Source of the DNA: Mustelus asterias
Lineage: Eukaryota
DNA: 64,000 bases
Reading direction: 5' to 3'
Assembly: GCF_964213995.1 (NCBI RefSeq)
Contig: NW_027590882.1
Location: forward strand, 62,001 to 126,000
Numbering within the stretch: position 1 is the first letter of the stretch; every line of letters starts with the position of its first letter. This document shows, piece after piece, positions 17,051 to 59,817 of this stretch. The translations under genes and the position numbers were made by a program. Below the pieces are notes generated by a model. It saw nothing but the letters and a program-made list of their open reading frames with translations, made no database searches and was not told the DNA's origin.

Positions 17051-19839
17051 ATGAAAGATGCCGCGACCAAAGCCATCCTAGACCTTAGGACGGTCGTGCT
17101 CGGCCCCGAAACTGCACGCAAACTTGAGACGGCGCAGGCGTGCGGTGGGATCCCGCCCGAGCGTTCCCCTGTTCGGGCGGAATTCCACATTGGCCCAAAA
17201 CCTCAGCCCCCCTCCCTGGGTGAGGTGCCCCACAGCCTGAGCCGCCTCGCGGAAATGCCCTCCGTGCCTTTTTCTACCGCGCGGAGGCGTTTCCTGTGCG
17301 GGCTGCTGCTGCACACCCTCCACTACCGCCTCCTCGCCTGTCGCCCGGATACACCTTGGCGGGCCTTGTTGCCGCCGGGCGGCGGAGGTCCCCGCTGGAG
17401 CTCCCTCTACGGAGGGATCTCCCCCAATTACGTCGGGGACCTGGGGTGGAGGGTGATGCATGCAGCAGTTCCGCACAACCGTAGGATTCACTGGTTCACG
17501 GGCTCCGAAGACTGCCCTTTCTGCGGCCTTGTGGAGTCCGTGGACCATGTCTATGTTGAGTGTCTTAGGCTGCACTCCCTTTATGTTTTCCTGAAGAACC
17601 TTTTATTGATGTTCTGTTTGCACTTCAGTCCCACGCTCCTGATCTACGGACACCCGGTGCGGAGAGGGGAGGGTCGGGATGGCGACCTCCTCGTGAACCT
17701 GCTCCTGGGCCTGGCGAAACGCGCCATTTACCGGTCCAGGCAGCGGGCGATCGAGGGGGCCGTCCATCCTGACTGTCTTCCCCTCTACCGCGGCTACGTT
17801 CGCGGCCAGGTGTCCCTGGAGAGGGAGCATGCGGTGTCCACGGGCGAGGTTGACGCTTTCCGCGCCCGCTGGGCACCGCAGGGGTTGGGGTGCATTATTG
17901 ACCCTAATAATCACATTTTAATTTGATGTTTTTAAGTTTCCTTTGTATTTTGATTTCTGTTCGGGCTGTTCCCCCTCCTTTTTGGGGAGCTGCCCCTTTT
18001 ACTTTGTCCCGATTTAATCTGAGTTTGTTTACTTGGTTTGGTTTGACCTAAAAAGAGGTCCCCTGTTCGGGCGGAATTCCACATTGGCCCAAAACCTCAA
18101 CCCCCCTCCCTGGGTGAGGTGCCCCACAGCCTGAGCCGCCTCGCGGAAATGCCCTCCGTGCCTTTTTCTACCGCGCGGAGGCGTTTCCTGTGCGGGCTGC
18201 TGCTGCACACCCTCCACTACCGCCTCCTCGCCTGTCGCCCGGATACACCTTGGCGGGCCTTGTTGCCGCCGGGTGGTGGAGGTCCCCGCTGGAGGTCCCT
18301 CTACGGAGGGATCTCCCCCAATTACGTCGGGGACCTGGGGTGGAGGGTGATGCATGCAGCAGTTCCGCACAACCGTAGGATTCACTGGTTCACGGGCTCC
18401 GAAGACTGCCCTTTCTGCGGCCTTGTGGAGTCCGTGGACCATGTCTATGTTGAGTGTCTTAGGCTGCACTCCCTTTATGTTTTCCTGAAGAACCTTTTAT
18501 TGATGTTCTGTTTGCACTTCAGTCCCACGCTCCTGATCTACGGACACCCGGTGCGGAGAGGGGAGGGTCGGGATGGCGACCTCCTCGTGAACCTGCTCCT
18601 GGGCCTGGCGAAACGCGCCATTTACCGGTCCAGGCAGCGGGCGATCGAGGGGGCCGTCCATCCTGACTGTCTTCCCCTCTACCGCGGCTACGTTCGCGGC
18701 CAGGTGTCCCTGGAGAGGGAGCATGCGGTGTCCACGGGCGAGGTTGACGCTTTCCGCGCCCGCTGGGCACCGCAGGGGTTGGGGTGCATTATTGACCCTA
18801 ATAATCACATTTTAATTTGATGTTTTTAAGTTTCCTTTGTATTTTGATTTCTGTTCGGGCTGTTCCCCCTCCTTTTTGGGGAGCTGCCCCTTTTACTTTG
18901 TCCTGATTTAATCTGAGTTTGTTTACTTGGTTTGGTTTGACCTAAAAAGAGGTCGGGCGGAATTCCACATTGGCCCAAAGCCTCAGCCCCCCTCCCTGGG
19001 TGAGGTGCCCCACAGCCCGAGCCGCCTCGCGGAAATGCCCTCCGTGCCTTTTTCTACCGCGCGGAGGCGTTTCCTGTGCGGGCTGCTGCTGCACACCTTC
19101 CACTACTGCCTCCTCGCCTGTCGCCCGGATACACCTTGGCGGGCCTTGTTGCCGCCGGGCGGCGGAGGTCCCCGCTGGAGGTCCCTCTACGGAGGGATCT
19201 CCCCCAATTACGTCGGGGACCTGGGGTGGAGGGTGATGCATGCAGCAGTTCCGCACAACCGTAGGGTTCACTGGTTCACGGGCTCCGAAGACTGCCCTTT
19301 CTGCGGCCTTGTGGAGTCCGTGGACCATGTCTATGTTGAGTGTCTTAGGCTGCACTCCCTTTATGTTTTCCTGAAGAACCTTTTATTGATGTTCTGTCTG
19401 CACTTCAGTCCCACGCTCCTGATCTACGGACACCCGGTGCGGAGAGGGGAGGGTCGGGATGGCGACCTCCTCGTGAACCTGCTCCTGGGCCTGGCGAAAC
19501 GCGCCATTTACCGGTCCAGGCAGCGGGCAATCGAGGGGGCCGTCCATCCTGACTGTCTTCCCCTCTACCGCGGCTACGTTCGCGGCCAGGTGTCCCTGGA
19601 GAGGGAGCATGCGGTGTCCACGGGCGAGGTTGACGCTTTCCGCGCCCGCTGGGCACGGCAGGGGTTGGGTGCATTATTGACCCCAATAATCACATTTTAA
19701 TTTGATGTTTTTAAGTTTCCTTTGTACTTTGATTTCTGTTCGGGCTGTTCCCCCTCCTTTTTGGGGAGCTGCCCCTTTTACTTTGTCCTGATTTAATCTG
19801 AGTTTGTTTATTTGGTTTGGTTTGACCTAAAAAAAAGAG
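17051..19839 (+). mobile_element. Three head-to-tail 5'-truncated copies of a Tx1-clade (L1-like) retrotransposon 3' end (17051-18057, 18058-18951, 18952-19839)
   Basis: Each encodes the zf-RVT C-terminus LGWRVMHAAVP...CPFCG..ESVDHVYVEC, followed by a near-identical 3' UTR ending TTTGACCTAAAAAGAG. Confidence 0.9.
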
Positions 19840-20230: not shown

Positions 20231-20861
20231 TAACATCAAAGGACAGTGGCTGAATGACAGACTCTCCAAGGTTCAAACCCGAAAAAAAGAAATAAGACGG
20301 TAGTGGGTTTAAATTTGTGATTCAAACCATGCTTGCGAACAGAGAGAAAATGTGCGACATGTTTTGTCCACAATTCCCAGTCTGGTGAGGTGACTGCGAG
20401 TAAATGGAAGAACACTGAACTGGGATATAATTAATGTCCTTATCGGGGCAAGGTGTCCTTTGGTGTTATTCACATCAGAAGAAAATCCTGATCTAGTTAT
20501 GGTAAGGCAGAGATTCTGGTCCGTAAAAGGTGTCAGGAAACAACAAAGCTCGAAAATTACGCTCGAAATGACAGTGGCATTGTGGGGGAATTCAGTAATA
20601 TTCGCAAAAAAGCATTCACAAAGCACGCTGTGTACCGACTGTGATCAAATGGACCGAGAAACGGAAAGGGGAGATGGGAAAGGGCTGGCCAATAATTGAT
20701 ACAGACTAGGAAATAACACCAAAGACAAATTGTCAGCTGACGCACCACGAACTCACTTTGGTGAGTGCCTTCGCTCGGAATTATAATACATTTCTGTTAC
20801 TCTCACTGTTTTTCGGGTGAGCGCGCCCTCTGCTGATCACGAACTGGAACTATCAGTGCGG

Positions 20862-21146
20862 TGCTTTTGTCCGAGATCCGCTCTATCTCTGCAGCAGAAA
20901 CACAAGGCGGTATCGGAGAGAAGCGTCCTGGTGACATTTGAGGAACAGTGTTCCTTTGTACAAAGTAGGCAATATTTTTCCACATCCTCCGGGCTATAAA
21001 TCCTCATTAAATATCTCGGAGTTTCGCTGGGATACAGGAACAGAGTAGGGAGAGTAGCTGTCGAGTATTTACAATCCAGCATTATGCTCTGTGCTTGGAG
21101 AACGCTTAATTCAGATTGATCATTGGACACAGAATCATCACTATTT
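20862..21146 (-). pseudogene. TCR alpha/delta-type V pseudogene (V1), internally deleted, heptamer lost
   Basis: Splice acceptor at 21147-21149; translation DDSVSNDQSELSVLQAQSIMLDCKYS...LYPSETPRYLMRI...NVTRTLLSDTALCFC; nonamer-like ACAAAAGCA at 20862-20870, 23 nt after the last Cys codon. Confidence 0.75.
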
Positions 21147-22223
21147 CTGCAACAAAACACAGAATGTATCAAATATCTGCGAGTGAAAATAACACTTGGA
21201 ACAAATATTCCCCATTTTTTAGTTCGTATATGTCTGTTTTGCTGCAGCTGTTTCTCTGATTGTATCTTCCTCTAAATCTATTCCTCATTCATTCATTTAT
21301 ATCACCGGTTCTTGCTCTGCTTAACTCCAGGTCTCGACTCCAATTCCAATTATTCAATCCCTCTTGTTTTCTTCCCATATCTCCACCTACATTTCTCCCT
21401 TGTCTCTCCCTTACAGGTTTCAATAACAGATATCCCGCATAATGGACCATCAGCTGGTGCTCAGGTCCATCGTAATATTTTGATACTTTGAAAAAATTCC
21501 AGTAGTCATTTTACATTCCACTCCATGGAAGTACTCCAGAATGTGATGCATGTTGCTGTTGTTAGGAGTGAGATTAATCAACAACTTGCAGCCAAAGCAC
21601 ATAGTACAAATCATGTATATCCAACGCCCAACATATCGACAGACATATCAAACACTCCCGCATTAATATCAAATATTAATTTCCACACCAAATGCCGTTA
21701 TTAGTCATTTCCTTGGATATAATGAAACACAGGAGGAATTGCAACCGACAGGAATGTTCTCGGTGCCAATATGAAATAATGCATGTCTATGTGTACATAT
21801 GATAGGGGAGATCTGAAATAAAAACAGAAAATTGCTGGAAAGACTCTGTGGAGAGAGAAACTGAGCTAAACATTTGCGACTTTGAAACTCCGAGTTGGCT
21901 GAGCAAAGGAGATAATTCTGCCTTTTACTGTAAAGGATATATGAAAATTCTGTCCCAAGGCAACTAATCGAAAACCATACATCAGTGTTGCATTTCTACT
22001 TTGTCCTCGGTGACGATATGAAAGATATTTACCATGGAAGTAATATATATGATTACGTATTCCATTAAACCTCCATTGACGTCATTCTCCTTTAATATTC
22101 TGGATCGAGAGAATGCCGAAACCAGGAAACGGCAATTAGTGGAATTGCAGCTTCCCGTTTTGATTTTAAGTGAGCAATTTTTGAAGGAGAGTGTTGACCA
22201 TAAAAAACAACTTTCTTTTGCAT

Positions 22224-22543
22224 GGACAATTATCGGTGGAGTGTCTGCGATCTCTCAATCACAGCAGATATTAACACAAAAGAGACAATCGATTGAAATC
22301 CAATGAAATACAATCACCTGATGCCCTGAGAGCATCCGCTCGTTCAGCCTGCAACAGAACCGTGGCCTGAAATTTGTCATTTCATCTGTTAGCAGAAACA
22401 CCACAGACTCTTCAAACTCTTCATTCACTCAACAAGACGTTTGACCAGTCCTAATGGAGACAGCACATCGGTATCAGGCGCTGGGGTGTGTTACTGTGTC
22501 AGTGAGTCACTGAGACACAAAACCCGCACGTCGCAGATAAACT
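22224..22543 (+). pseudogene. Highly decayed TCR V pseudogene (V2)
   Basis: AISQSQQIL..SIEIQ*(C), FR2-like IRSFSLQQNRGLKFVI, FR3-like SVSGAGVCYCV; RSS-like GTCACTG-22 nt-AGATAAACT at 22506-22543. Confidence 0.55.
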
Positions 22544-22552
22544 ATCCAGTTA

Positions 22553-23406
22553 TATCCCGAGGTGATGAGAAGCTTTTTTTATTGGTCGTGGTTCATCCTG
22601 AGCAACTCCGTGACGAAGGACTCTGTGCTCTACGGGCTGTTCCCAGGGACAAACCGAGACAAGCACCAATTGCTGTTGGAGAATTTTCAACTGGGTAAAA
22701 CACACCATTTGCCTTCCCGAAACCAGTTGATCTTCATGTGCAAAGAATTGTCCTCGATCGAGTGTTGCAGACAACACATTCCAGGCCACAGGGCTACCGA
22801 TTGAGGGACGCACTAAACCTTGGGGCTGTTGCTGCAAAGGCGCAATGAGGAAAACTGCGATCTTTCGGCCATTGTGATCTGAGGGGAGCAGAACTCTATA
22901 TGAACGCCCCGTGCTGTTGGACTCACATTGAATGAATGCAGTGAATATTACACGTCTCGCAATTCTACTGAAGCACCTGAGAGTGTAACTTGTTCAATGT
23001 AGACAACCTAAATAACATCGCCCCTCCTGTATTGACGATCTTGAAATATGTATTATGTTCCATTGATTGCACTGAAGCTCTTCAATGTGCAACATTATCT
23101 TTGCAGAAAACTTCAGTATCACTGCACTTTCTGAAATGACCATTTTGCAACGTTCTGTAATGTTTCATTGAATGCGTTGAAGCGCGTCAGAGTGCAAAAT
23201 TATCTGTGTCCGAAACCTAAACGTTATTGCACTTTCTGTAAAAACCGTTCTGAAAAATTCTGTAATATTCCTTTAATTATACACAGAGTGCAACAGCTTC
23301 ATTGTCGAAAGCTTGAATGTTATTGCACTTGCTGTTATGGCCATTTTGAAGTATTTTGTAATGTTCTTTCAGATACTTTATGAATAAGTTTTCTTTTGGA
23401 AAAAAG
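22553..23406 (+). mobile_element. Old Tx1 3' fragment, related to the element at 52447-57640
   Basis: SNSVTKDSVLYGLFPGT...ELSSIECCR matches SSSVTQDSVLYGLFPGT...ELSSTECCR; similar AATAA...A-rich end. Confidence 0.85.
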
Positions 23407-23509
23407 CACAACGTCCCAGTTTGCGAGTTCACAATCCTCACAGCTGTCACTGCTCCCTTCAGTAAGTTGACTACATTGTGAACTACTGGTGAATACAAAG
23501 AGCTTCTAC

Positions 23510-25325
23510 AAATACATAAAAGGCAAAAGAGTAACAAGGAAGAGAGTAGGGTCTGTTAAGGATCAACTAGGTCATCGATGTGCGGATCCACAACAGCTGG
23601 GTCAGATCCTAAATGAATATTTCTTATAAGTATTTATTGTTGAGAAAAGCATAGATGTTCGGGGCCTTGGGGAAATAAATAGTGATGTCTTGAGGAGTGC
23701 ACATATTACTGAGAAGGAGGTGTTGGAAGTCTTAAAGCGCATCAAGGTGGATAAATCCCCGGGATCTGATGAAATGTATCCCAGGACATTGTAGGAGGCT
23801 AGGGAGAAAATTGCGAGTCCCCCAGCAGAGATATTTGAATCATCGACAGTCACAGGTGAGGTGCCTGAAGATTTGAGGGAGGCAAATGTTGTGCCTTTGT
23901 TTTAAAAGGGCTGCAGGGAAAAGCCTGGGAACTACAGGCCAGTGAGCCTCATACCTGTGGGGGGTAAGCTGTAAGGGATTTTGAGAGGCAAGATCTGCAG
24001 GAATTTAGAGACGCAGGAACTGATTAGGGACATTCAGCATGGCTTTGTGAGTGGAAAATCATGTCTCACAAACTTGATGGAGCCTTTTGAAGGGGTAACC
24101 AAGAAGATAGATGAGGGCAGTGCAGGTGATGTTGTCTACATGGACTTTAGCAAGGCTTTTCACAAGGTACCGCATGGCAGGTTGTTGCATAAGGTTAAAT
24201 CTCATGGGATCCAGGGCGACGTAGCTAAATGGATACAAAATTGGGTTGATGACACAAGCCAGAGGGTAATTGCCGAGGGTTGTTTTTCAAACTGGAGGCC
24301 TGTGACCAGAGGTTTGCCTTCGGGATCAGTACTGGGTCCGCTGTTATTTGTCATTTATATTAATGATTTGGATGAGAATATAGGAGGCATGGTTAGTAAG
24401 TTTCCAGATGACACCAAGATTGGTAGCATAGTGGACAGTGAAGAAGGTTTTCTTGGACTGCAACGGGATCTTGATCAATTGACCAGTGGGCTGACGAATG
24501 GCAGATGGAGTTTAATTTAGATAAATGCGAGGTGATGCATTTTGGTAGATTGAACCAGGGCAGGACTTACTTAGTTAATGGTAGGGCGTTGGGGAGAGTT
24601 ACAGAACAAAGACATCTAGGGGTACATGTTCATCGCTCCTTGAAAGTGGAGTCACAGGTGGACAGAGTGGTGAAGAAGGCATTCAGAATGGTTGTTTTCT
24701 TTGGTTAGAGCATTGAATACAGTAGTTAGGACGTCTTTTTGAAGTTGTACAAGACATTGGTAAGGCCACACTTGGAATACTGTGTACATTTCTGGTCACC
24801 CTATTATAGAAAGGATATTATTAAACTAGAAAGAGTGGAGACAATATTTACTAGGATGCTACCGGGACTTGATGGTTTGAGTTGTAAGGGGAGGCTGGAT
24901 AGACTGGGACTTTTTTTCTCTAGAGCGTCGAAGGCTGAGGGGTGATCTTACATAGGTCTATAAAATAATGAGGGGTAGATCAGCTAGATAGTCAATATCT
25001 TTTCCCAATGGTGGGGGAGTCTAAAGCTAGAGGCATAGGTTTAAGGTGAGAGGGAGACGTACAAAAGTGTCCGGAGGGGCAATTTTTTCACACAGAGGGT
25101 GGTGAGTGTCTGGAACAAGCTGCCAGAGGTATTAGTAGACGCGGGTACAATTTTGTCTTTTGAAAAGCATTTAGAAAGTTACATGGGTCTGATGGGTATA
25201 GAGGGATATGAGCCAAATGCGGGCAATTGGGACTAGCTTCAGGGTTTGAAAAAAAGGGCAGCATGGACAAGTTGGGTCAAAGGGCCTGTTTCCATGTTGT
25301 AAACCTCTATGACTCTATGACTCTA
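23510..25325 (+). mobile_element. CR1 LINE ORF2 3' portion with (CTATGACT)n tail
   Basis: QHGFVSGKSCLTNL, YMDFSKAF, GSVLGPLLF, KFPDD; tail repeat at about 25306-25326. Confidence 0.92.
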
Positions 25326-25654
25326 TGGTGCTATCCATTCCTCAGGAAAATGGTTACTCGGGCCGGCTGAAGCATGTTAGCATTTTACTGCTCTTTATTT
25401 CTATGCATTTTGTTAACCTTGAGCTCTTGATTGTTGTGCGGGAAAGGTTAATCCAAATTAATATCATCACCGTGATATTGAGCCAGGTCTGCACCGACAG
25501 CAGTTATTTGTTCAGTCACTTCAGTTGCAGACGGAGATCTGTACACCGTACAGACAAGGAGGAGTCTGTTGACCTATTGTGCCTGTGCCAGGACTTCGCA
25601 GGGGCTATCCAAATAAGTCCACATCCCTGCTCTTTACAAAGAGTCCTGAAGGAA

Positions 25655-26055
25655 ACTTGGTCCATCACGCAAACCAGCCTCCCATCCATTGACTCTGTCT
25701 ACACTTCCCGCTGCCTCAGAAAAGCGCCCGGCATAATCAAGGACCCCACGCACACCGGGCATACGCTTCTCCACCTTATTCCGTTGGGAAAAAGAAACGG
25801 ATGTCTGAGGTCACGTACCAACCGACTCAAGGACAGCTTCTTCCCTGCTACCATCGGACTTTTAAATAGATCTACCACACATTAAGCTGTTATTTCTCTA
25901 CACCCTGGTTTTATTTGTAACACTGCATCCTGCACCCTCTCCTGTCCTTCTCCCCTATGTTCTCTATGTATGGTAAGCTTTGTCTGTATAGCATGCAAGA
26001 AACAATACTTTCCACTGTATACCAGTGTATGTGAAAATGCTAAATCAAATTTATC
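25655..26055 (+). mobile_element. Rex1/Babar-type LINE 3' end
   Basis: LPSIDSVYTSRCLRKA..IIKDPTH.GH.L...RSRTNRLKDSFFP. Confidence 0.8.
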
Positions 26056-26525
26056 CAAACCCAAGACAATTCCTCCTTTACATCTTTTGAAACAATATTC
26101 AGTTATTTCGTTCAGAAAAACAATGAGAGAAATAAAACCTGAAATAGAGGCATGCATTCTAATGAACATTTTCTAAAATTTTATACTGTTGACGGATTGC
26201 GATATTAAGAATGCTGAAAATTTATTGTACTGAGCTGGTGCTCCCAGTTTGTCTGATTCTAGGAGCAGCGCTCCGGAAGCTTGTGCTACCAAATAAACCT
26301 GTTGGACTTTAACCTGGTGTTGTGAGAGTTCTTACTGTCATGAATTAGAGCAGAAAGGAGCTCTCAGCTAATTGGATGAATCCAGAGCAAAGAGCCCAGG
26401 AGCTTATTGGATATCAGCTGATGACGCTGCCAGGAATAAACCAATTTGTAGATTGTGGTATCCAATCAGCTCTTTATTCTCTAATCAGTGCTCTCCACTC
26501 TTCCGACCATAGGTTCTGTAGGGTG

Positions 26526-26533
26526 TGACGTCA
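26526..26533 (+). promoter_or_regulatory. CRE (TGACGTCA) in the V3 promoter
   Basis: Perfect CRE about 90 nt upstream of the leader ATG; CRE-like elements are established TCR V promoter motifs. Confidence 0.7.
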
Positions 26534-26624
26534 GATCAGCCACAGCCAATGCTCTCAGCTTTATCTTGTTCAACCTTCTGCAGCTTTTGGAGAAACAAGT
26601 CCCTGGAATCCAGGAGCAGCAGCA

Positions 26625-27665
26625 ATGCGGCTCCCCGTTTTCACTCTGATCTGGGTGACATTCATTGTTGATGAGTTTAATACTTTAAAAATGAGTTATT
26701 TTCTGGAGGAATAAAGTTGAAAAGCAGGACATTCATGTTATACAGGTATTGGACAAATGAATTCTTGCGAGTGGTTTTAGTCTTTTGAAAATAGATTCGA
26801 AAAGCACACTGAAAAGGCGATTTCGAGAAATGGTACTCGGATTGGGAGATGAGAGCTATCAGAATGCAAGATTATGATTACTTTCTCGACTGACCAAAGA
26901 AACTAACGCAAACCTGACTGATCTATTTATAATGATAACGAGGATTGGTGTTGGGTGGACGGGGAGAGGATGATTCCACTTGTAGGAGGAATCCAAATAT
27001 ATGTCCCAAAATTCTAATGAAACAAATAGATCAACTGGGAATCGGAGAGAAACATCTTTAGAAAGAGTTGGGTAGAATGTGACTCATATTAACACAATGA
27101 ACACTTGAGGAGAGGAGCAAATACTTATTTAAAGGTAAACTAAACTAAACAGCTGAGGAAGAAAGGGACAACTGCATTGAGAAGAGGCGAGAGGGAGGAA
27201 TCTCCAGGGGACTGTAAACGGGAACATAGATCAGTTGGAGAGAATGTGGTATGATTCAATACATTCAATACATATTTTTATGTTGCACTGTCAGTGAATT
27301 TTCTCCCTTAGTTCAATTGAACTTTTAATCAATGTTTTTCCTTTCTTTAACCGTGTGTTTCAGATCTGAGCGATGGAGATTCTGTTACTCAGCGGGAACC
27401 CTCACTCACACGGACAGAGGGAGAAGATGTCACTTTAAACTGCACCTTTACCGACGATGCTTATTATTTATTTTGGTATCGTCAATACCCAGGAAAACAG
27501 CCTGAGTTTGCAGTCCGGAGAGACAAGAAGGGCGGTTTTGAATTAAAGGCGGATTTCGCTCAGACCCGGATTTCTGATTCAGTCCAGCAGTCAGACAGGT
27601 TGTACCGATTGACTATCTCGGAGCTGCGGCTGTCTGACACTGCGGTCTATTACTGTGCAGAGTCT
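26625..27665 (+). pseudogene. TCR alpha/delta-type V segment (V3): leader exon 26625-26670 and intact V exon 27364-27665; leader donor mutated (G|ATGAGT)
   Basis: Leader MRLPVFTLIWVTFIV, phase 1; V exon (D)LSDGDSVTQREPSLTRTEGEDVTLNCTFTDDAYYLFWYRQYPGKQPEFAVRRDKKGGFELKADFAQTRISDSVQQSDRLYRLTISELRLSDTAVYYCAES with both canonical Cys and the WYRQ Trp. Confidence 0.9.
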
Positions 27666-27704
27666 CACACTGATGAGAACGAGTGAAATCCTCGTACAAA
27701 AACT
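27666..27704 (+). other. 23-RSS of V3
   Basis: CACACTG + 23-nt spacer + ACAAAAACT. Confidence 0.95.
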
Positions 27705-29069
27705 GCTGCAGGTTTCTGAGTCACAGCTGCTGTCTGTCGAGTGCTGTTTCTAACAGCAGGTTATACACTAACACGTCAATACATTCCTGTGAACGCAAAC
27801 CAGGCCACAATTCACACAAACACCATCTAAAATCGTTCACAGAATCCGTCTGATTATTACATTCACTGTGCGAGGGAAGAATTAGCTGTTGGTTATTTGG
27901 AATCACCGGGAAATCGGCACTAATATTGAGAATTCAAAATGCTGCAGGTAGCCTTGAACTAGTTGTACCCTTGTTCTGATGTTTCAAAGAACACTCGGGG
28001 CAAAGAAACAATACTGTTTGGTTTGATATGTCAGTCAATAGTGTAAACTGATGCCCGCCTGCTGAGGCAAATCCTCATAATCACAACAGCCTGATTAAAC
28101 ATCTCTCAATGTTACAGTAATGAAATAAAAATATCAACTGGGAATCGAAGAGAAACTTCATTGGAAAGAGTTCGGAAGAATGTGACTCATATTAACACAA
28201 TGAACACTTGACACATATTAAAACTAAGAATTCTTTACAGTAAAGGTACAAAAGTTTATTTCAATGCATGCTTAGAATCCAATGAACAATGATTAATATC
28301 TCTATTAATAATCTCTAAGAACAGGTTTGGTGTACTCTAGACACTGGAACATTTGGTAAGAAAATCGACTGAATGCAAAAACCTAATTGAGAAGAGCGTC
28401 AGAAAGTTCCTGAAGGACAACTAGGGATGGACAATAAATAGCGGCCTAGCCCGCGATGCCCACATGCCCGAAAGCCTTTCTTTAAAAGTCTGCTGTAATC
28501 ACCAGAATTGCTTTGGGAAATCGAATCCGCGGGACAAGTCTTTATGCTCAGACAAATATTTTGTTGGGATATGGACCAAACGCGGGCAATTGGGACTTGC
28601 ATAGTGGTTAGAAGAGGGTAGCATGGACAAGTTGGGCAGAAGGGTCTGTTTCCATGCTGTAAACCTCTATGACTCTATGACTACTTCCATATCCGTTATT
28701 TCCCTGAATATCCACAAATCTATCAACTGCCTTCAAGAAATCAAACGACTGTACAATCATTGCTCTCTTTGACACATAGAGTGCATTAAAGCGAATGTAT
28801 GGTTTTTGACTGAGATGATTTTTGAGATATGACTCTGATGAGTTTTATTTCATGTTGTAATAACAGCACCAGAGTCTCCTATTCAGAGTTGCTCGTAAAC
28901 GACAGAAACTACTATAAAGAGGGATTTTACATACACTGACAGACATTCAGCACAAAGAACCTGATCATTCGGTTTAATTGGTTTTAATGAGATGATTTTG
29001 TTTCTATTAACTGTTCACAATCCAGCTCAGAGATCGGATTCAGTGAGAGGAGGTGAGAATGACTTTGCT

Positions 29070-29546
29070 GGTTTTTGTACGGACTAACTGCGACTCTGTA
29101 ACTGCGGTTCAGCGCACACTGTTACAGATACACGGCAGAGACAGAGGCACGGACCCCGGTGATATTTAATGGAGCTGTTTTCTTGTCTCTGTCCAAATTA
29201 GCAGAAAACTGGTCCGAAAAATCAGGAGACTTATCCCCCTTCCCCTGGCCGTAACTTTTCAATAAATATCTCGGAGCTTCTCCTGGATACAGGATGTACC
29301 AGAATAGAGTTTGGTCAACGTACTTATCTTTATAACTGCAGTTCAAAGTTACCGTCTGTACTTCCTGAACCGTTAATTCAGGCGGCTCCTGGGAAACTGA
29401 AGTTTGGCCATTGGTTCCTGTAACAACATATAGACTGTGTGAGAAATCTGTGAGTGAATATAACCCATTGAACACACACTGAGGATTTGAGCTCAGACTC
29501 ACGGGGCAGCATGTCCATTATCATCAGTAGAACACGCAGGGAACAT
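29070..29546 (-). pseudogene. TCR alpha/delta-type V pseudogene (V4): leader 29546-29503, 85-nt intron, V exon from 29417, degenerate RSS
   Basis: QTSVSQEPPELTVQEVQTVTLNCSYKDKYVDQTLFWYILYPGEAPRYLL...SAVYL*QCAL, with a stop before the second Cys; leader is 44 nt (out of phase); CGCAGTT-21 nt-ACAAAAACC. Confidence 0.9.
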
Positions 29547-29699
29547 GTGGTTCCTGACTGGACAGGAACAGCGACACTGTTTAAAATATGTTGTTGCTTC
29601 TAGTCTTATATCACGGGGTAAACTCAGATCAGAGGCATCTTCAAACATTGGCAAATTGGGGGGTTTTCTCAGTGTTGCAATTGGCTGGTCCCCTTGAGA

Positions 29700-29707
29700 T
29701 GACGTCA
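29700..29707 (-). promoter_or_regulatory. CRE (TGACGTCA) in the V4 promoter
   Basis: About 155 nt upstream of the V4 leader ATG. Confidence 0.6.
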
Positions 29708-30470
29708 GCTATGGACCAAACACTGTTAGTGGTGGACTAAACACAGCTGGCTCCCTCCAAACACATTCCATCCCGGGCTGTGTGTGTTTTTCTCACTCTC
29801 TTTCTCTCTCCATGAAAGGTGAATAACGTTATCAGTTACACTGTCTCTTTCTCGGTTAACCCTCTTTCGTTCGAACTCAATATCCCCCTTTTTATAGATA
29901 GATTATCTTTCTAAATAAAGTTAAAAGTGAAATAAATAATTTACCCTCATTTACTCTGCGGGTATTAATGAGTGCATCCACTGCATGAACATAATAGTAG
30001 TTACTGCTTTATTTATACCGGGGATAAGTAATCACCCAAGTCAACATTGACTTGCGTTTCCACTGGGATTACTCTTATACTGGGAAAGTACTGATTCAAT
30101 CAGTCATTATTTCTGTCCAGAAACTTCAAAATGTGACAAGTCTCAGTGTGCCTTTAATATTGGATCACATTTAACAGGTTCCCCTGACAGATAGGCATCT
30201 GATACAGAAAGATTGGAAGTACTGATTTATTAAGTTATTCACTCGGGACATCTGTGGGTTTTGTGATTGGGATCAGGAAATGATTGGATTTATCCAGGAA
30301 TAATCTGAGCGCCAAATGTCACATTTCCCCAACAGTGACAATCACTGACGTTAGGGAGGGAAAGCCACTCAGCTGGGGCTGCATTGTCAGGTTCATCATC
30401 TGTACATTTTCTCTGAAATTCAATGCAATGTGTTTTGCGGACAAGGAACCATTGATTGAGGACCTGCGCC

Positions 30471-30509
30471 AGTTTTTGTACGAAGCCCGCGGGATCCTCA
30501 TTCAGTGTG
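30471..30509 (-). other. Intact 23-RSS of V5
   Basis: CACACTG + AATGAGGATCCCGCGGGCTTCGT (23 nt) + ACAAAAACT. Confidence 0.95.
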
Positions 30510-30963
30510 GGTCTCAGTGCACAGTAATACAGGGCGTTATCTGTCATCTTCAAATCTTTCATGGACAAGTGAAAAGTGCTTTGTGTCTCGCTGAGATTCC
30601 AGCTGAAATGTTTAAAGCCGGGAGCCGTATCGGTAAATCCATAACTCTCGGCTCTGAGCAGATACTGAGGAGCTCGGTGTGGATACTGGCGATACCAGAA
30701 CAGGACATAGACTGTAGGTAAACCCTATACAGAGTAACTGCAGGGTATTGCTGAATCTTCACCCTCTGCTGCTTCAACTCTTGGTTCTGACTGGGACACA
30801 GTCGCCGTTACTCATCTCTGAAAATAGACAACAGACGCGCAGCGGTTTAGAAGGAGTAACAACAACGGAATAATCGCCTAGAAATGGAAATGGGCAATTA
30901 ATATGGTGATTGGCGGATTTCAGTCAAAGGTTCAAAATGACCGTCCTGTGATCAGGACAATAA

Positions 30964-31185
30964 GAAGTTTCACAACACCAGGTTAAAGTCCAACAGGTTT
31001 ATTTGGTAGCAAAAGCCACACAAGCTTTCGGAGCTCCAAGCCCCTTCTTCAGGTGAGTGAAGGGGCTTGGAGCTCCGATAGCTTGTGTGGCTTTTGCTAC
31101 CAAATAAACCTGTTGGACTTTAAGCTGGTGTTGTTAAACTTCTTATTGTGTTTACCCCAGTCCAACGCCGGCATCTCCACATCAC
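30964..31185. mobile_element. Mini Penelope-terminus insertion (family A): hairpin with arms of about 90 bp and a hammerhead motif
   Basis: Arms about 30957-31047 and 31059-31149; TSD CAGGACAATAA at 30953-30963 and 31186-31196; sequence matches the Penelope end at 61333-61460. Confidence 0.85.
31019..31055 (-). ncRNA. Minimal type I hammerhead ribozyme motif
   Basis: CAC-CUGAAGA-A-GGGGC(UUGGA)GCUCC-GAAA-GC-UU-GUG: both core boxes, 5-bp stem II, palindromic AGCU in place of stem III, CAC/GUG stem I. Confidence 0.7.
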
Positions 31186-31499
31186 CAGGACAATAACCAG
31201 AGACAGACAGACTTTCACCTCCATAGTTCCAGTCTGAACACCAGAAACAGAGGCAGTGATCACTGTCTGCATAAGACCTGGAAATGGAGAAGTTGAAACA
31301 GTCAGTGGAATGGTATGAGGCCGAAAGTCACTTCGTCTCTCCGCCCATTTTTACATCTTCAAACAGACGCTTCCTCTCGAAGGGAATCGTGATTTTTCAT
31401 AAGTGATCAGAGAGCGCCCTCCCGTGGACAGCAAAGCCGCATATTGGAAACAGATACACACACGGTCACCTGTAAAGGCTGATAGATAGATATCTAGAT

Positions 31500-39392: not shown

Positions 39393-39617
39393 TTGATGCA
39401 TTAATTATTGAGCAGAAATCATTGATCCCTTAGATATTTGCCGGACGACCGCTTATAAATGTTGAAGTTCAAGATGAGTTGAGAAATCAGGTTGAAAGAA
39501 ACGATTTTTGTCTTGTATTAAGTGACATGGGCTCTCAGTTTTACCATTAGAGCCTGCAGCAACACAGTCGAGTTGAACATTGTGGTCAGGCCAATTGGCG
39601 GCACTATGCTGGTAGTT

Positions 39618-39690
39618 GTTTCTGTAGTGTAGTGGTTATCACGTTCGCCTCACACGCGAAAGATCCCCGGTTCGAAACCGGGCAGGAACA
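39618..39690 (+). tRNA. tRNA-Val (anticodon CAC)
   Basis: 73 nt; acceptor stem GTTTCTG/CAGGAAC, anticodon arm TTCGC-CTCACAC-GCGAA, T loop GTTCGAAAC; about four differences from the canonical vertebrate tRNA-Val-CAC as I recall it. Confidence 0.93.
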
Positions 39691-40427
39691 TTTATTGAAA
39701 TTATTCATTTTGTATGCGGGAAGTTTTGCATGGTTTCAGTTGTTGCTGAACATTCTCCGAATCTCGATGTTGCAGCCATATTATCTTTGGTCTGACCTCG
39801 GCCACAAATGCTCTCAGTAAAATCAGAAATGCTGTATTTTAAGACGCAATGAGGAAATAAATGTTTGTACTTAGACACCGTGCGCATATTAGCAACTTGT
39901 TCAGTCCATAACAGAATTTAATGGATTTATAAATGCAGACTAACATAGTTAATCACCATCTGAAACATGTCGAACAGTAGTGTGTGCTCATAAAGACAGA
40001 CACAAGTGAAACTGTAACTGAACTAGAGGAAATGGCGCACATGTCCTGGAAGCATATTTTTTGAATTGTTCTTCAGAATAAAGAAATGGGAAAAAATCAC
40101 TCAGGCAGATGAGTAAATCGAAACTCAGTGTAGATCTGCTGGACTTTTTTCTATAGATGAACGGGATTTAGGCGCCAGAATGTTTCACGCGCAGAATAAA
40201 GAGGGATCAAGTATAACTAGCAGATCATTATTAAGCCTTTTCCCTTTAAAGATATTTGATATTGTTTAAAAGCTGACTATCTCAAATAAGCACCATGGGA
40301 TGTTTACTACCCAGTGACTCGATTTCTTTTATTGGTCAGTCATGTTTGCAATGCAATGTTGCATATTCCCGAGATATTCAACTCAGAATGAAGATGGATG
40401 TATTCAATACATGTATTCATATTTAAT

Positions 40428-41252: not shown

Positions 41253-41970
41253 CGGTGTGTGGGAAGGGATTCACTCAGTCATTCTACCTGTGCAGACACA
41301 ATCTCACTCACAGCAATGAGAGACCGTTTAAATGCTCTGACTGTGGGAGCGGATTCAGAAGCTCTCAGGATCTGGTGTCCCACCAGCGCATTCACACTGA
41401 GGAAAGACCATTCAGCTGCTCTCACTGCACAAAGAGGTTTAAATGGTCATCCAGCCTGCGGGTACACCAGCGAGTTCACACTGGGGAGAGACCATTCCCC
41501 TGCTGTGTGTGTGGGAAGGGATTCACTGCTTCATCCAGCCTGCTGAAACACAAAGCCACTCACTCCAAGGAGAGCCCCTTTAATGCTCTGCCCGAGAGGC
41601 CGGCTTCAGAAGCTCTCAGGAACTGATGATCCCCGAGCACATTCACACCGGGGAGAGGCCGTTCAGCTGCTCTCACTGTTCAAGGAGGTTTAGAATATCA
41701 CCAACACTGCTGAAACACCAGTGAGTTCACACCGGGGAGAAACCATTCACCTGCTCGGTGTGTGCGAAAGGATTTACTCAGTTATCCAGCCTGCCCAGAC
41801 ACAACATCATCACACCCAGGAGAGACCCTTTAAATGTGGGCGCGGCTTCAAAAGCTCTCGGGAACTAATGTCCCACCAGTGAGTTCACACCAGGCAGAGG
41901 CTGGTCACCTGCTCTGACTGGGAAGGGATTCAATCAGTCAGCAAACTTGGTGAAACACCAGTGAGTTCAG
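41253..41970 (+). pseudogene. C2H2 zinc-finger array pseudogene (about 8 fingers, frameshifts and stops; 5' end abuts the CR1)
   Basis: CGKGFTQS...H, ERPFKCSDCG, HTEERPFSCSHC, HTGERPFPCCVCGKGF. Confidence 0.9.
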
Positions 41971-47774: not shown

Positions 47775-48113
47775 TCACTCGTGAACTTGCTGGTGTCTCA
47801 GCAGGTGGGATGAAACTCTGAATCCCTTCCCACACTGAGAGCAGGTGAATGGTTTCTCCCCAGTGTGAACTCGCTGGTGTGCCCGCAGGTCGGATGACTG
47901 AGTGAATCCCTTCCCACACTGGGAGCAGGTGAACGGCCTCTCCCCAGTGTGAATTCGCTGGTGTGTCTGCAGGCTGGATAACTGAGTGAATCCCTTCCCA
48001 CACTGGGAGCAGGTGAATGGCCTCTCCCCAGTGTGGCTGCGCCAATGAGCTGCCAGCAGACATGGGTATCTGTATCCCTTCCCACAGTCCACACATTTCC
48101 ATGGTTTCTCCAT
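47775..48113 (-). CDS. Small KRAB-less C2H2 zinc-finger protein (4 fingers, about 112 aa from MEKPWKC)
   Basis: Open frame with four C-x2-C-x12-H-x3-H fingers and TGERPF/TGEKPF linkers; splice acceptor near 48465; candidate CpG promoter near 49.9 kb. Confidence 0.8.
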
Positions 48114-58080: not shown

Positions 58081-58554
58081 ATAATGAGAGCTCATCTTTT
58101 CCTTCATCCCTGGAATCAATCTGGTAAATGGTCTCTCCCCAGTGTGAACTCACCGGTCTGTCAGCAGGTTGACCGTGCCCCCAAATAAAAGAGAATGTGG
58201 AACTTGGTACACAACAAGTGGTTGAGTTGAACAGCATGAATACATTGAAGGGGAAGCTAGATACATACATAAGGGAGAAAGAAATAGAAGGATATGCTGA
58301 AGGGGGGGCGGGGGGGGCGGGGAGATGAAGAACAGTGGGTGGAGGCTCATGTGGAGCATAAATACTGACACAGACCGATTGAGCCGACTGGCCCAGCCCT
58401 GTGCTGTAGACTCACTGGAACAGAGACTAATGTATTTATTTGAGATCTGACTGCAGTGGTAGATGCAGAATCTATCAGATAAATTCAGGCCAGACTTAAG
58501 GATCATGGTGTTGTGATCTCAGTGAAAACAGTGTGGAGCAGCCACAGTATCTCG

Positions 58555-59010
58555 GTTACGATGAACATTCATCTTCTGAAAGCCCTTGTGTTGCCGTGAC
58601 AATGTGTGTCTGTGAAAGCTGGACTATCAATAAGAGTGACGAGGATCCAATAAAAGTGTTTGAAATGAAAGGACTCAGACGGATATTCCGTGTGTCACGG
58701 ACGGCAAAGTGGATGAATGAGTGGGTGCTGGAGAAAGCTGGTGTTCACCGGAACCTGTCTGAGGCTCTCACATCCCGGAAGCTCACCTATTTTGGACATG
58801 TGTTGTGAATAGGGAGGGAGTGTTTGGAAAAAGAGGTAATGCGAGACAAAACACCTGGAAAATGTGTTCAAGGAAGGCCCGAGACAGGTGGATAATATCG
58901 GAATGTGGACCGGCCTCTCGATGGGACAGGCAGTGAGAGCAGCTGAGAAATCAGTGGAGAAAGATTGTTCAGAGTGCGGCCAACCCTCAGAACGAGGACG
59001 GATAAAAGAC
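58555..59010 (+). mobile_element. RTE-clade LINE 3' fragment
   Basis: CESWTI...IKVFEMKGLRRIFRVS...NEWVL...RKLTYFGHV. Confidence 0.8.
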
Positions 59011-59511
59011 AAGACATCTGTAGTGGTAGGAAAAAGACTATTTATTATCCAGGATAAAATTAATGTACTCTATAGAAACTAGGAGTAGGCCATTCGAGTC
59101 TGCTCCACCATTCAATATGATCATGGCTGATCCTCGATCTCAATGCCATATTCTCCCCATACCACCTGAAGCCGTTAAAATCTAAAACAAAAATTATCTC
59201 TTCCTTGAATATATTCAGTGATTGGGATTCCACAGCCTTCTGTGGTGGAGAATTCCACAAGTTCACTACCCTTTGAGTTAAGATTTTTTTCCTCATCTCA
59301 GTCTCATCTGACATCTGCTTTTGTGGATCATTTCAGTGGAAATGTGCCCTCGCTCAAAGAGCATCAGCCACTGGAATGAACATTGAGAGACCGGCCAGTC
59401 CAACAGCAAGAAACCCTCTGACCCCCACACTTCACCAACTGTCAGAATGAACATGGTTCAGTCCTGGATGTGATCAACAGCAGCAATAACAACAGAATCC
59501 AACCCCTGTCA

Positions 59512-59817
<306 letters not shown>

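Follow-up and report, generated by a model that had tools for sequence, protein, structure and literature searches.

In the standing picture, shark immunoglobulin (Ig) genes lie in miniclusters and shark T cell receptor (TCR) genes in translocons, with a single TCR-delta constant gene (C-delta) nested before the joining (J) segments of TCR-alpha. The TCR alpha/delta locus of sharks has been described as a translocon (PMC12227049, PMC6795676), and Table S1 of Flajnik et al. 2025 gives one delta constant (C) model, followed by an alpha C, in catshark and stingray (PMC12227049). Here we describe a stretch of 64,000 nucleotides from Mustelus asterias (assembly GCF_964213995.1, contig NW_027590882.1, hereafter C850, positions 62,001 to 126,000; "the window"), which carries five disabled TCR alpha/delta-type variable (V) exons. 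These V pseudogenes probably flank, on its 3' side, a TCR-delta mini-locus that occurs in 19 assembly copies, likely representing at least 10 real loci, segmentally duplicated among the IgM clusters of the antigen-receptor complex. Taken on their own, five V pseudogenes would be ordinary.

Parts of this arrangement are familiar. In the elasmobranch antigen-receptor complex, where TCR alpha/delta is linked to IgH, Flajnik et al. 2025 reported alpha/delta V exons, both intact and pseudogenic, that face either way and lie between IgM clusters across megabases, with NAR-TCR V cassettes in several places; the scattered, mixed-orientation pattern is already published (PMC12227049). In the NAR-TCR of sharks, a NAR-type V-D-J (D, diversity segment) lies ahead of a supporting V-delta that is joined to C-delta (PMC12227049, PMC6795676, PMC3457774). 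The TCR-mu of marsupials and monotremes consists of delta-derived double-V chains encoded in repeated clusters outside the alpha/delta locus, with a pre-joined supporting V (PMC7615758, PMC3457774). Separation of TRA and TRD has been described in the newt (PMC12698447), and a second C-delta in frogs and birds (PMC3457774). The germline locus of the nurse shark has been noted as incomplete at the time of that work (PMC5931798). In the literature searched, which took in few subscription papers, no report of multiple shark C-delta genes was found.

A TCR-delta unit that runs into the window

Contig C850 is 150,712 bp long and gap-free. A duplicated block on the forward strand covers window positions 1 to 30963 and continues 5' beyond the window through a TCR-delta constant gene. 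This gene comprises, with AG and GT splice sites, a C exon (C850:57,787-58,098), a hinge exon (C850:60,823-60,885) and a transmembrane (TM) exon (C850:61,328-61,437), all on the forward strand; window base 1 follows about 560 bp after the TM exon. Five forward-strand J segments are found at 36.6, 38.9, 40.5, 49.5 and 50.4 kb of the contig, preceded at 36.0 kb by a supporting V-delta that is joined to a D at 36.27 kb (36,275); the fused D retains its 23-RSS (recombination signal sequence). Further upstream, again on the forward strand, a NAR-TCR V-D-J lies at 30.4-31.8 kb, with a 22-RSS on the V, 12/12 signals on the D and a 23-RSS on the J. A NAR-type V, a 12/12 D and a 23-RSS J, followed by a supporting V-delta, make up the NAR-TCR pattern, which C850 shows. 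The supporting V-delta of NAR-TCR is marked by an extra Cys in complementarity-determining region 1.

A previous reading of the window from its sequence only (the sequence-only reading) had noted the lack of D, J and C in 64 kb and had proposed either an orphon V cluster or the decaying edge of the alpha/delta locus. The lack is real inside the window and ends beyond it. A V-only cluster without partner segments would agree with the absence of D, J and C from the 64 kb and with other copies of the V cassette that lie away from any listed C-delta. It is refuted for this copy by the condition that the sequence-only reading itself had set, linkage to J or C segments: a D, five J and an intact C-delta share the same gap-free contig at 21-50 kb from the first V exon, V1, which itself sits 21 kb 3' of C-delta, and the spacing from C-delta to the cassette is the same in 16 of the 19 units. 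The decaying edge of an alpha/delta locus in the usual sense does not describe the block either, which is better described as the 3' flank of one among many duplicated TCR-delta units.

On sequence grounds, the multiplied constant gene is TCR-delta. The signature CLXXXFXP marks trd and CLXTD marks tra (PMC10322711), and the constant gene of the C850 type carries the first and lacks the second. Its TM exon bears Arg and Lys like those of alpha/delta chains, and the matches of its C exon are to Ig domains only. In the sister units, a D with a 5' 12-RSS and a 3' 23-RSS lies ahead of J1; this D has 10 exact matches (reversed control, 0), nine of them upstream of a listed C-delta. Weighing against the assignment, the TM exon alone fails to split alpha from delta (best alpha 31.0 bits, delta 29.1), and the nearest named proteins, from Mustelus asterias RefSeq at 81-98%, are called 'alpha chain-like' or uncharacterised. 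That the gene encodes TCR-alpha or a new chain is nevertheless very improbable given its trd signature, the missing tra signature and the D segments and NAR-TCR cassettes upstream of it, and also because two other C genes already show the tra signature together with large J arrays. These, the only two C-alpha genes, are about 30% identical to C-delta and 75% to each other.

One C-alpha lies on contig C546 (138,000-242,000) behind 139 J motifs, and the other on C71, a 20-Mb scaffold with IgH clusters (18,366,000-18,432,000), behind 34 J motifs at 18.37-18.41 Mb; a delta unit, in contrast, has five J. The nested translocon, with C-delta directly 5' of J-alpha and C-alpha, does not appear here, as C-delta was found beside neither C-alpha. 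No J-alpha array occurs on C850 or behind the C71 units at 7.14 and 12.27 Mb, and neither V nor C-delta in the 186 gap-free kb 5' of the C71 J-alpha array. Behind the V exons of C546 (214 of 249 kb read) come two D-delta relics, decayed J, a gap of 200 N and J-alpha. The relics, at 113,600 and 120,800 and thus upstream of the large J-alpha array, have a shortened spacer in the 3' RSS. This arrangement suggests that the nested C-delta was lost from the alpha locus. Since NAR V, supporting V, TAILV-like V, J and C come in the same order in a basking-shark model, the TCR-delta unit appears to be the delta locus's ancestral 3' end.

Copies of the unit and their V-D joins

With all 119 candidates scored, the assembly contains 19 matches to the C-delta exon, at 83-100%. 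In all 19 copies the C, hinge and TM exons have correct splice sites and one terminal stop, and 15 distinct proteins are encoded. Compared over 7 kb, the copies are 87-99.8% alike. Three of them lie on C71 at 7.14, 11.04 and 12.27 Mb; these are 97-98% alike over 7 kb and differ in their flanks and in V content. Many C1-set exons are spread over 1.6-13.5 Mb of the same scaffold, where 56 kb separate an IgM V from a D-delta. Another D-J-delta stretch, at C973:93,700-96,900, is possibly a twentieth unit; its contig has no C-delta match.

The layout is seen in a gap-free 150-kb map of C71:7.05-7.20 Mb, which contains an IgM-type VH-D-D-J, a NAR V-D-J, a supporting V, a TAILV-like V, a D, five J, C-delta, and counterparts of V1, V3, V4 and V5, with C1-set exons at 7.07 Mb. 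Across the assembly a NAR V lies 16-58 kb 5' of C-delta in 15 of the 19 units, and V2 and/or V3 lie 22-35 kb 3' of it in 16; of the three units without a V2/V3 call, two stop at the contig end and one, on C181, gave no match. The units thus share with Ig-type miniclusters the trait of repeated V-(D)-J-C cassettes. C850 is a mosaic of sister copies in which 38 kb, from the D onwards, are 99.4% identical to the 12.25-Mb unit and 38 kb are 98.6% identical to C71:7.135-7.173 Mb; among the matches listed, V1 to V3 are nearest to C106, and V4 and V5 to C401 and C123. Also among the matches listed, window positions 17.7-31.0 kb are 99.0% identical to C106 along 12.9 kb and 98.1% identical to C71:7.16 Mb along 13.3 kb.

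Several units depart from the common layout. On C138 (217,600-218,500) one unit has an IgM-type VH standing directly before its D-delta and J-delta, which amounts to a VH-delta layout already in place, and the D there resembles a fusion of an IgH D with D-delta. At C71:11,018,000-11,024,000, J-delta is immediately preceded by the V block that is also present on the alpha contig C546, and no D was seen in that interval. In place of V3 to V5, three units (C71:11,098,250; C71:12,325,426; C111:897,136) have a NAR V in inverted orientation, about 55 kb behind C-delta. On the 3' side of the supporting V-delta, two to three stacked 23-RSSs with a 61-bp spacing were seen at C71:7,091,239-7,091,340 and C71:12,229,725-12,229,890.

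V-D coding joints are present in 5 of the 19 units, and they are of three different kinds. In the C850 join, judged against the germline V and D of sister units and against reads, the supporting V meets the D after the loss of 3 nt on either side and without inserted bases. A distinct V-D join is found on C401, and C436, C119 and C96 have a third in common; because it is shared, this join precedes the duplication of the three units and is therefore in the germline. In run X4, which may be the assembled sample, a 57-bp piece spans the C850 join with no mismatch at a depth of 5.2, with 30 and 27 letters on its two sides and so below the 31-letter rule, alongside germline V at a depth of 9.3 and germline D at 5.1. 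X1 and X2, which are one sample, gave germline ends only, and X3 the D end only, in contigs that cannot prove the absence of a join; a stretch of the supporting V lacked cover in X3 and was not counted as evidence. The C850 join is likely a polymorphic germline join.

Several further observations count against at least 10 real and functioning units. Of the 19 copies, 16 are on unplaced contigs. Haplotype duplication may account for four groups whose members are 99.1-99.8% alike over 7 kb, which leaves about 14 groups (a grouping made by eye at 99%). A good 12-RSS is found on only three of the five C850 J segments, a nested C-delta may lie in the gap that separates the D-delta relics of C546 from its J-alpha, and the units are known here from genomic DNA alone. 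Among the C-delta copies pN/pS (nonsynonymous to synonymous polymorphism) is about 0.76 (0.034/0.045), which indicates weak purifying selection.

The linkage of C-delta could thus be real and the copy number mostly an artefact of assembly, through retained haplotypes or mis-assembled repeats, with only two to four C-delta genes. The unplaced copies, the several pairs that are more than 99% alike and the mosaic nature of C850 all fit such an account. We consider it improbable, since 15 proteins and nucleotide identities of 87-99.8% exceed what two haplotypes of a few loci would give, since three units with different V content and flanks stand on one scaffold, and since the controls for false duplication yielded no twin copies: neither C-alpha has a near-identical twin, and none of 28 proteasome-exon matches has the same score on a second contig. 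Both controls are modest ones.

An unlikely but weightier possibility is that the units are real and mostly passengers, one or two C-delta being used and the rest being recent, undecayed by-products of IgM-cluster duplication. The weak pN/pS signal would agree with this, as would the largely dead V cassettes behind C-delta and the same V cassette 3' of an IgM cluster that lacks C-delta (C71:9.05-9.09 Mb). On the other side, C-delta is intact in every copy while nearby introns and V exons collect frameshifts. The coding part of C-delta has two gap events, both in frame, and none that shifts the frame in 483 columns; the introns have 18 gap events in 1,050 columns, 13 of them not a multiple of 3. 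The three different V-D coding joints, moreover, are marks of RAG-type action on several units.

The V cassette in the window

All five V-type exons of the sequence-only reading are present in the orientations it gave (V1 minus, V2 plus, V3 plus, V4 minus, V5 minus). Its assignment to TCR alpha/delta V was upheld by V-set matches, Cys, WYxQ and the 23-RSSs in V3 and V5. V3 and V5 end after the second Cys with no J part and have a 23-RSS 3' of the exon; the RSS is broken in V1, V2 and V4. The two 23-RSS sites of the window compare with a mean of 0.015 in shuffled sequence, and none of 200 shuffles reached two. That several V families are sampled also stood, as V1, V3, V4 and V5 are only 21-40% identical in pairs.

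V1 (20860-21146, minus strand), a TCR alpha/delta V exon in decay, has internal deletions and lacks the Trp and a usable RSS; at the nucleotide level it is 66% identical to V exons located at C71:11.018 Mb and on C546. V2 (22226-22543, plus strand) is decayed as well, with the first Cys turned into a stop, frameshifts and a degenerate RSS remnant, and it is called a V exon on the strength of 70% identity, across 300 nt, with V exons of C71:19.43-19.45 Mb. Both V1 and V2 are assigned as V solely by likeness to sister V exons. V3 is the best preserved: its exon (27364-27665, plus strand) has an open frame, both Cys, WYRQ and a Pfam V-set match (E=5e-14), followed by a 23-RSS (27666-27704). Its sole lesion lies at the donor of the leader exon (26625-26670, plus strand), which reads AT instead of GT at 26671-26672.

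V4 (29070-29416, minus strand) is inverted relative to D-J-C-delta and has a V-set match of E=1e-11 with the Trp present. A TAA stands just 5' of the second Cys, which is left behind the stop, and the RSS heptamer is broken (it starts CGC). The V4 leader remnant (29503-29550, minus strand) retains a GT donor and has lost the expected start. V5 (30510-30817, minus strand), inverted likewise, carries both Cys and WYxQ, a 1-nt deletion near the exon start and a TAG at 30725-30727; its 23-RSS (30471-30509, minus strand) is aimed at D-J-C-delta. The leader donor of V5 is not GT, and the leader, whose 5' part is at 31186-31224 (minus strand), is interrupted by a 233-bp hairpin insertion resembling a miniature inverted-repeat transposable element (30953-31196; 11-bp target-site duplication, 102-nt arms). 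This element marks a sub-lineage among the V5 copies. The V3 and V5 signals had been called exact; they do not match the consensus exactly, each RSS having one mismatch in the heptamer and one in the nonamer. The cAMP response element (CRE) octamers reported at the V3 (26526-26533) and V4 (29700-29707) promoters were confirmed, and an additional octamer lies 5' of V2 (22077-22084).

The claim that all five V are disabled is right for the window copy and wrong for the cassette family. Genome-wide, V3 is one of a group with at least 150 other members related to it (best 150 of 1,763 candidates scored), and it is readable in 25 of 32 fetched copies: 14 are intact, seven have the AT donor and four have broken frames. 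Intact here means an ATG, a GT donor, an open frame and an RSS, and one passing copy has an in-frame deletion of eight residues. The V4-V5 part has at least 31 matches of at least 92% over at least 1.1 kb (best 40 of 3,289 candidates); V4 is broken in 31 of 31 copies, and the V5 exon is open and has its RSS in 6 of 26, with one of 18 parsed copies fully intact. Because the same lesions recur across copies, among them the V3 donor change and the V4 damage, they are inherited and not read errors; sequencing error was ruled out as their cause.

A tree of 46 V rows places V1 and V4 with V exons from C546, the alpha contig (support 94/88), and V3 with bamboo-shark V models (97/95), and leaves V5 as a long unplaced branch. 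The alpha/delta side is weakly supported (77/40), and V1, V3, V4 and the unplaced V5 did not group with the rows for NAR V, for supporting V-delta, or for TAILV-like or IgM V. The tree leaves out V2, contains no light-chain, beta or gamma V rows, and has a 'teleostlike' row that is a squamate model. Homologue searches with V3 led to unnamed shark models, and a PDB search matched multi-domain antibody constructs only, which give no class.

Just before V1, at 17165-19833, stand three tandem units of about 890 bp that resemble LINE elements and are 98% alike; their copy number is different in C106. Next to the cassette the sequence-only reading had seen tRNA and zinc-finger arrays. The window has a single tRNA gene (tRNA-Val, 39617-39691, downstream of the cassette) rather than an array, and zinc-finger motifs in four patches, with short C2H2 patches 3' of the cassette at 41333-41668, 47843-48095 and 58146-59748.

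Predicted rearrangement and comparison with known systems

From this anatomy we infer that each unit rearranges by RAG mostly within itself, in the style of an Ig minicluster. Under the 12/23 rule, a NAR V-D-J would be followed by a V-delta joined to D and then J, to give a three-domain delta chain; in C850 the second domain would need only one join after the V-D fusion. For the inverted V1, V4 and V5 behind C-delta, inversion would be the route to D or J. V2 and V3 point the other way, and their only partners for a chromosomal coding joint would be a downstream unit or J-alpha. V3 and V5 of the window copy may still be cleavable by RAG and yet would yield no protein, so that the cassette would be a passenger in this copy and a possible source of V in the sister copies. 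The unit copies presumably evolve by birth and death and by exchange between units. A bolder version holds that TCR-delta has wholly left the alpha locus, that 15-20 working Ig-style miniclusters, each with a NAR-TCR cassette, D, J and C-delta, lie among the IgM clusters, and that germline RAG editing continues, so that V-D joins and content vary between individuals; this is conceivable, and we lean somewhat against it.

Many delta loci would raise the question of allelic exclusion, and also whether the trans-rearrangement of IgM V to TCR-delta is mere short-range joining between neighbours, and whether RAG joining in the germline extends to TCR genes. With 15 C-delta proteins that can be told apart, transcripts could be assigned to units.

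In mammals an inverted V (human TRDV3) lies 3' of C-delta. The cassette resembles it in having V behind C-delta and facing it, and differs in that several families in mixed orientation are present and are dead in the window copy. With the antigen-receptor complex of Flajnik et al. the present locus shares V in mixed orientation among IgM clusters and NAR-TCR cassettes; here there are 19 D-J-C-delta units and C-delta was found beside neither C-alpha, whereas one delta C is given there (PMC12227049). The V-D-J and supporting V are those of shark NAR-TCR as so far described, except that most units here own a D, J and C and that the V is pre-fused to D in five of 19. Like the delta loci described for newt, frog and bird, the units show TRD apart from TRA, inverted V groups and a germline-joined segment, but C-delta numbers one or two in those accounts and about ten times more here.

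A further parallel is TCR-mu, with its delta-derived double-V chains, repeated clusters and pre-joined supporting V. Compared with the published descriptions of TCR-mu, the shark units belong to an independent lineage, use a NAR-type instead of a VH-type V, are scattered among IgM clusters rather than in tandem, have only V and D pre-joined with introns retained, and reach 19 copies against 5-9 clusters. A shark with at least 10 TCR-delta V-D-J-C units would, if true, break the rule that TCR genes lie in translocons with one nested C-delta and would converge on the mammalian TCR-mu layout.

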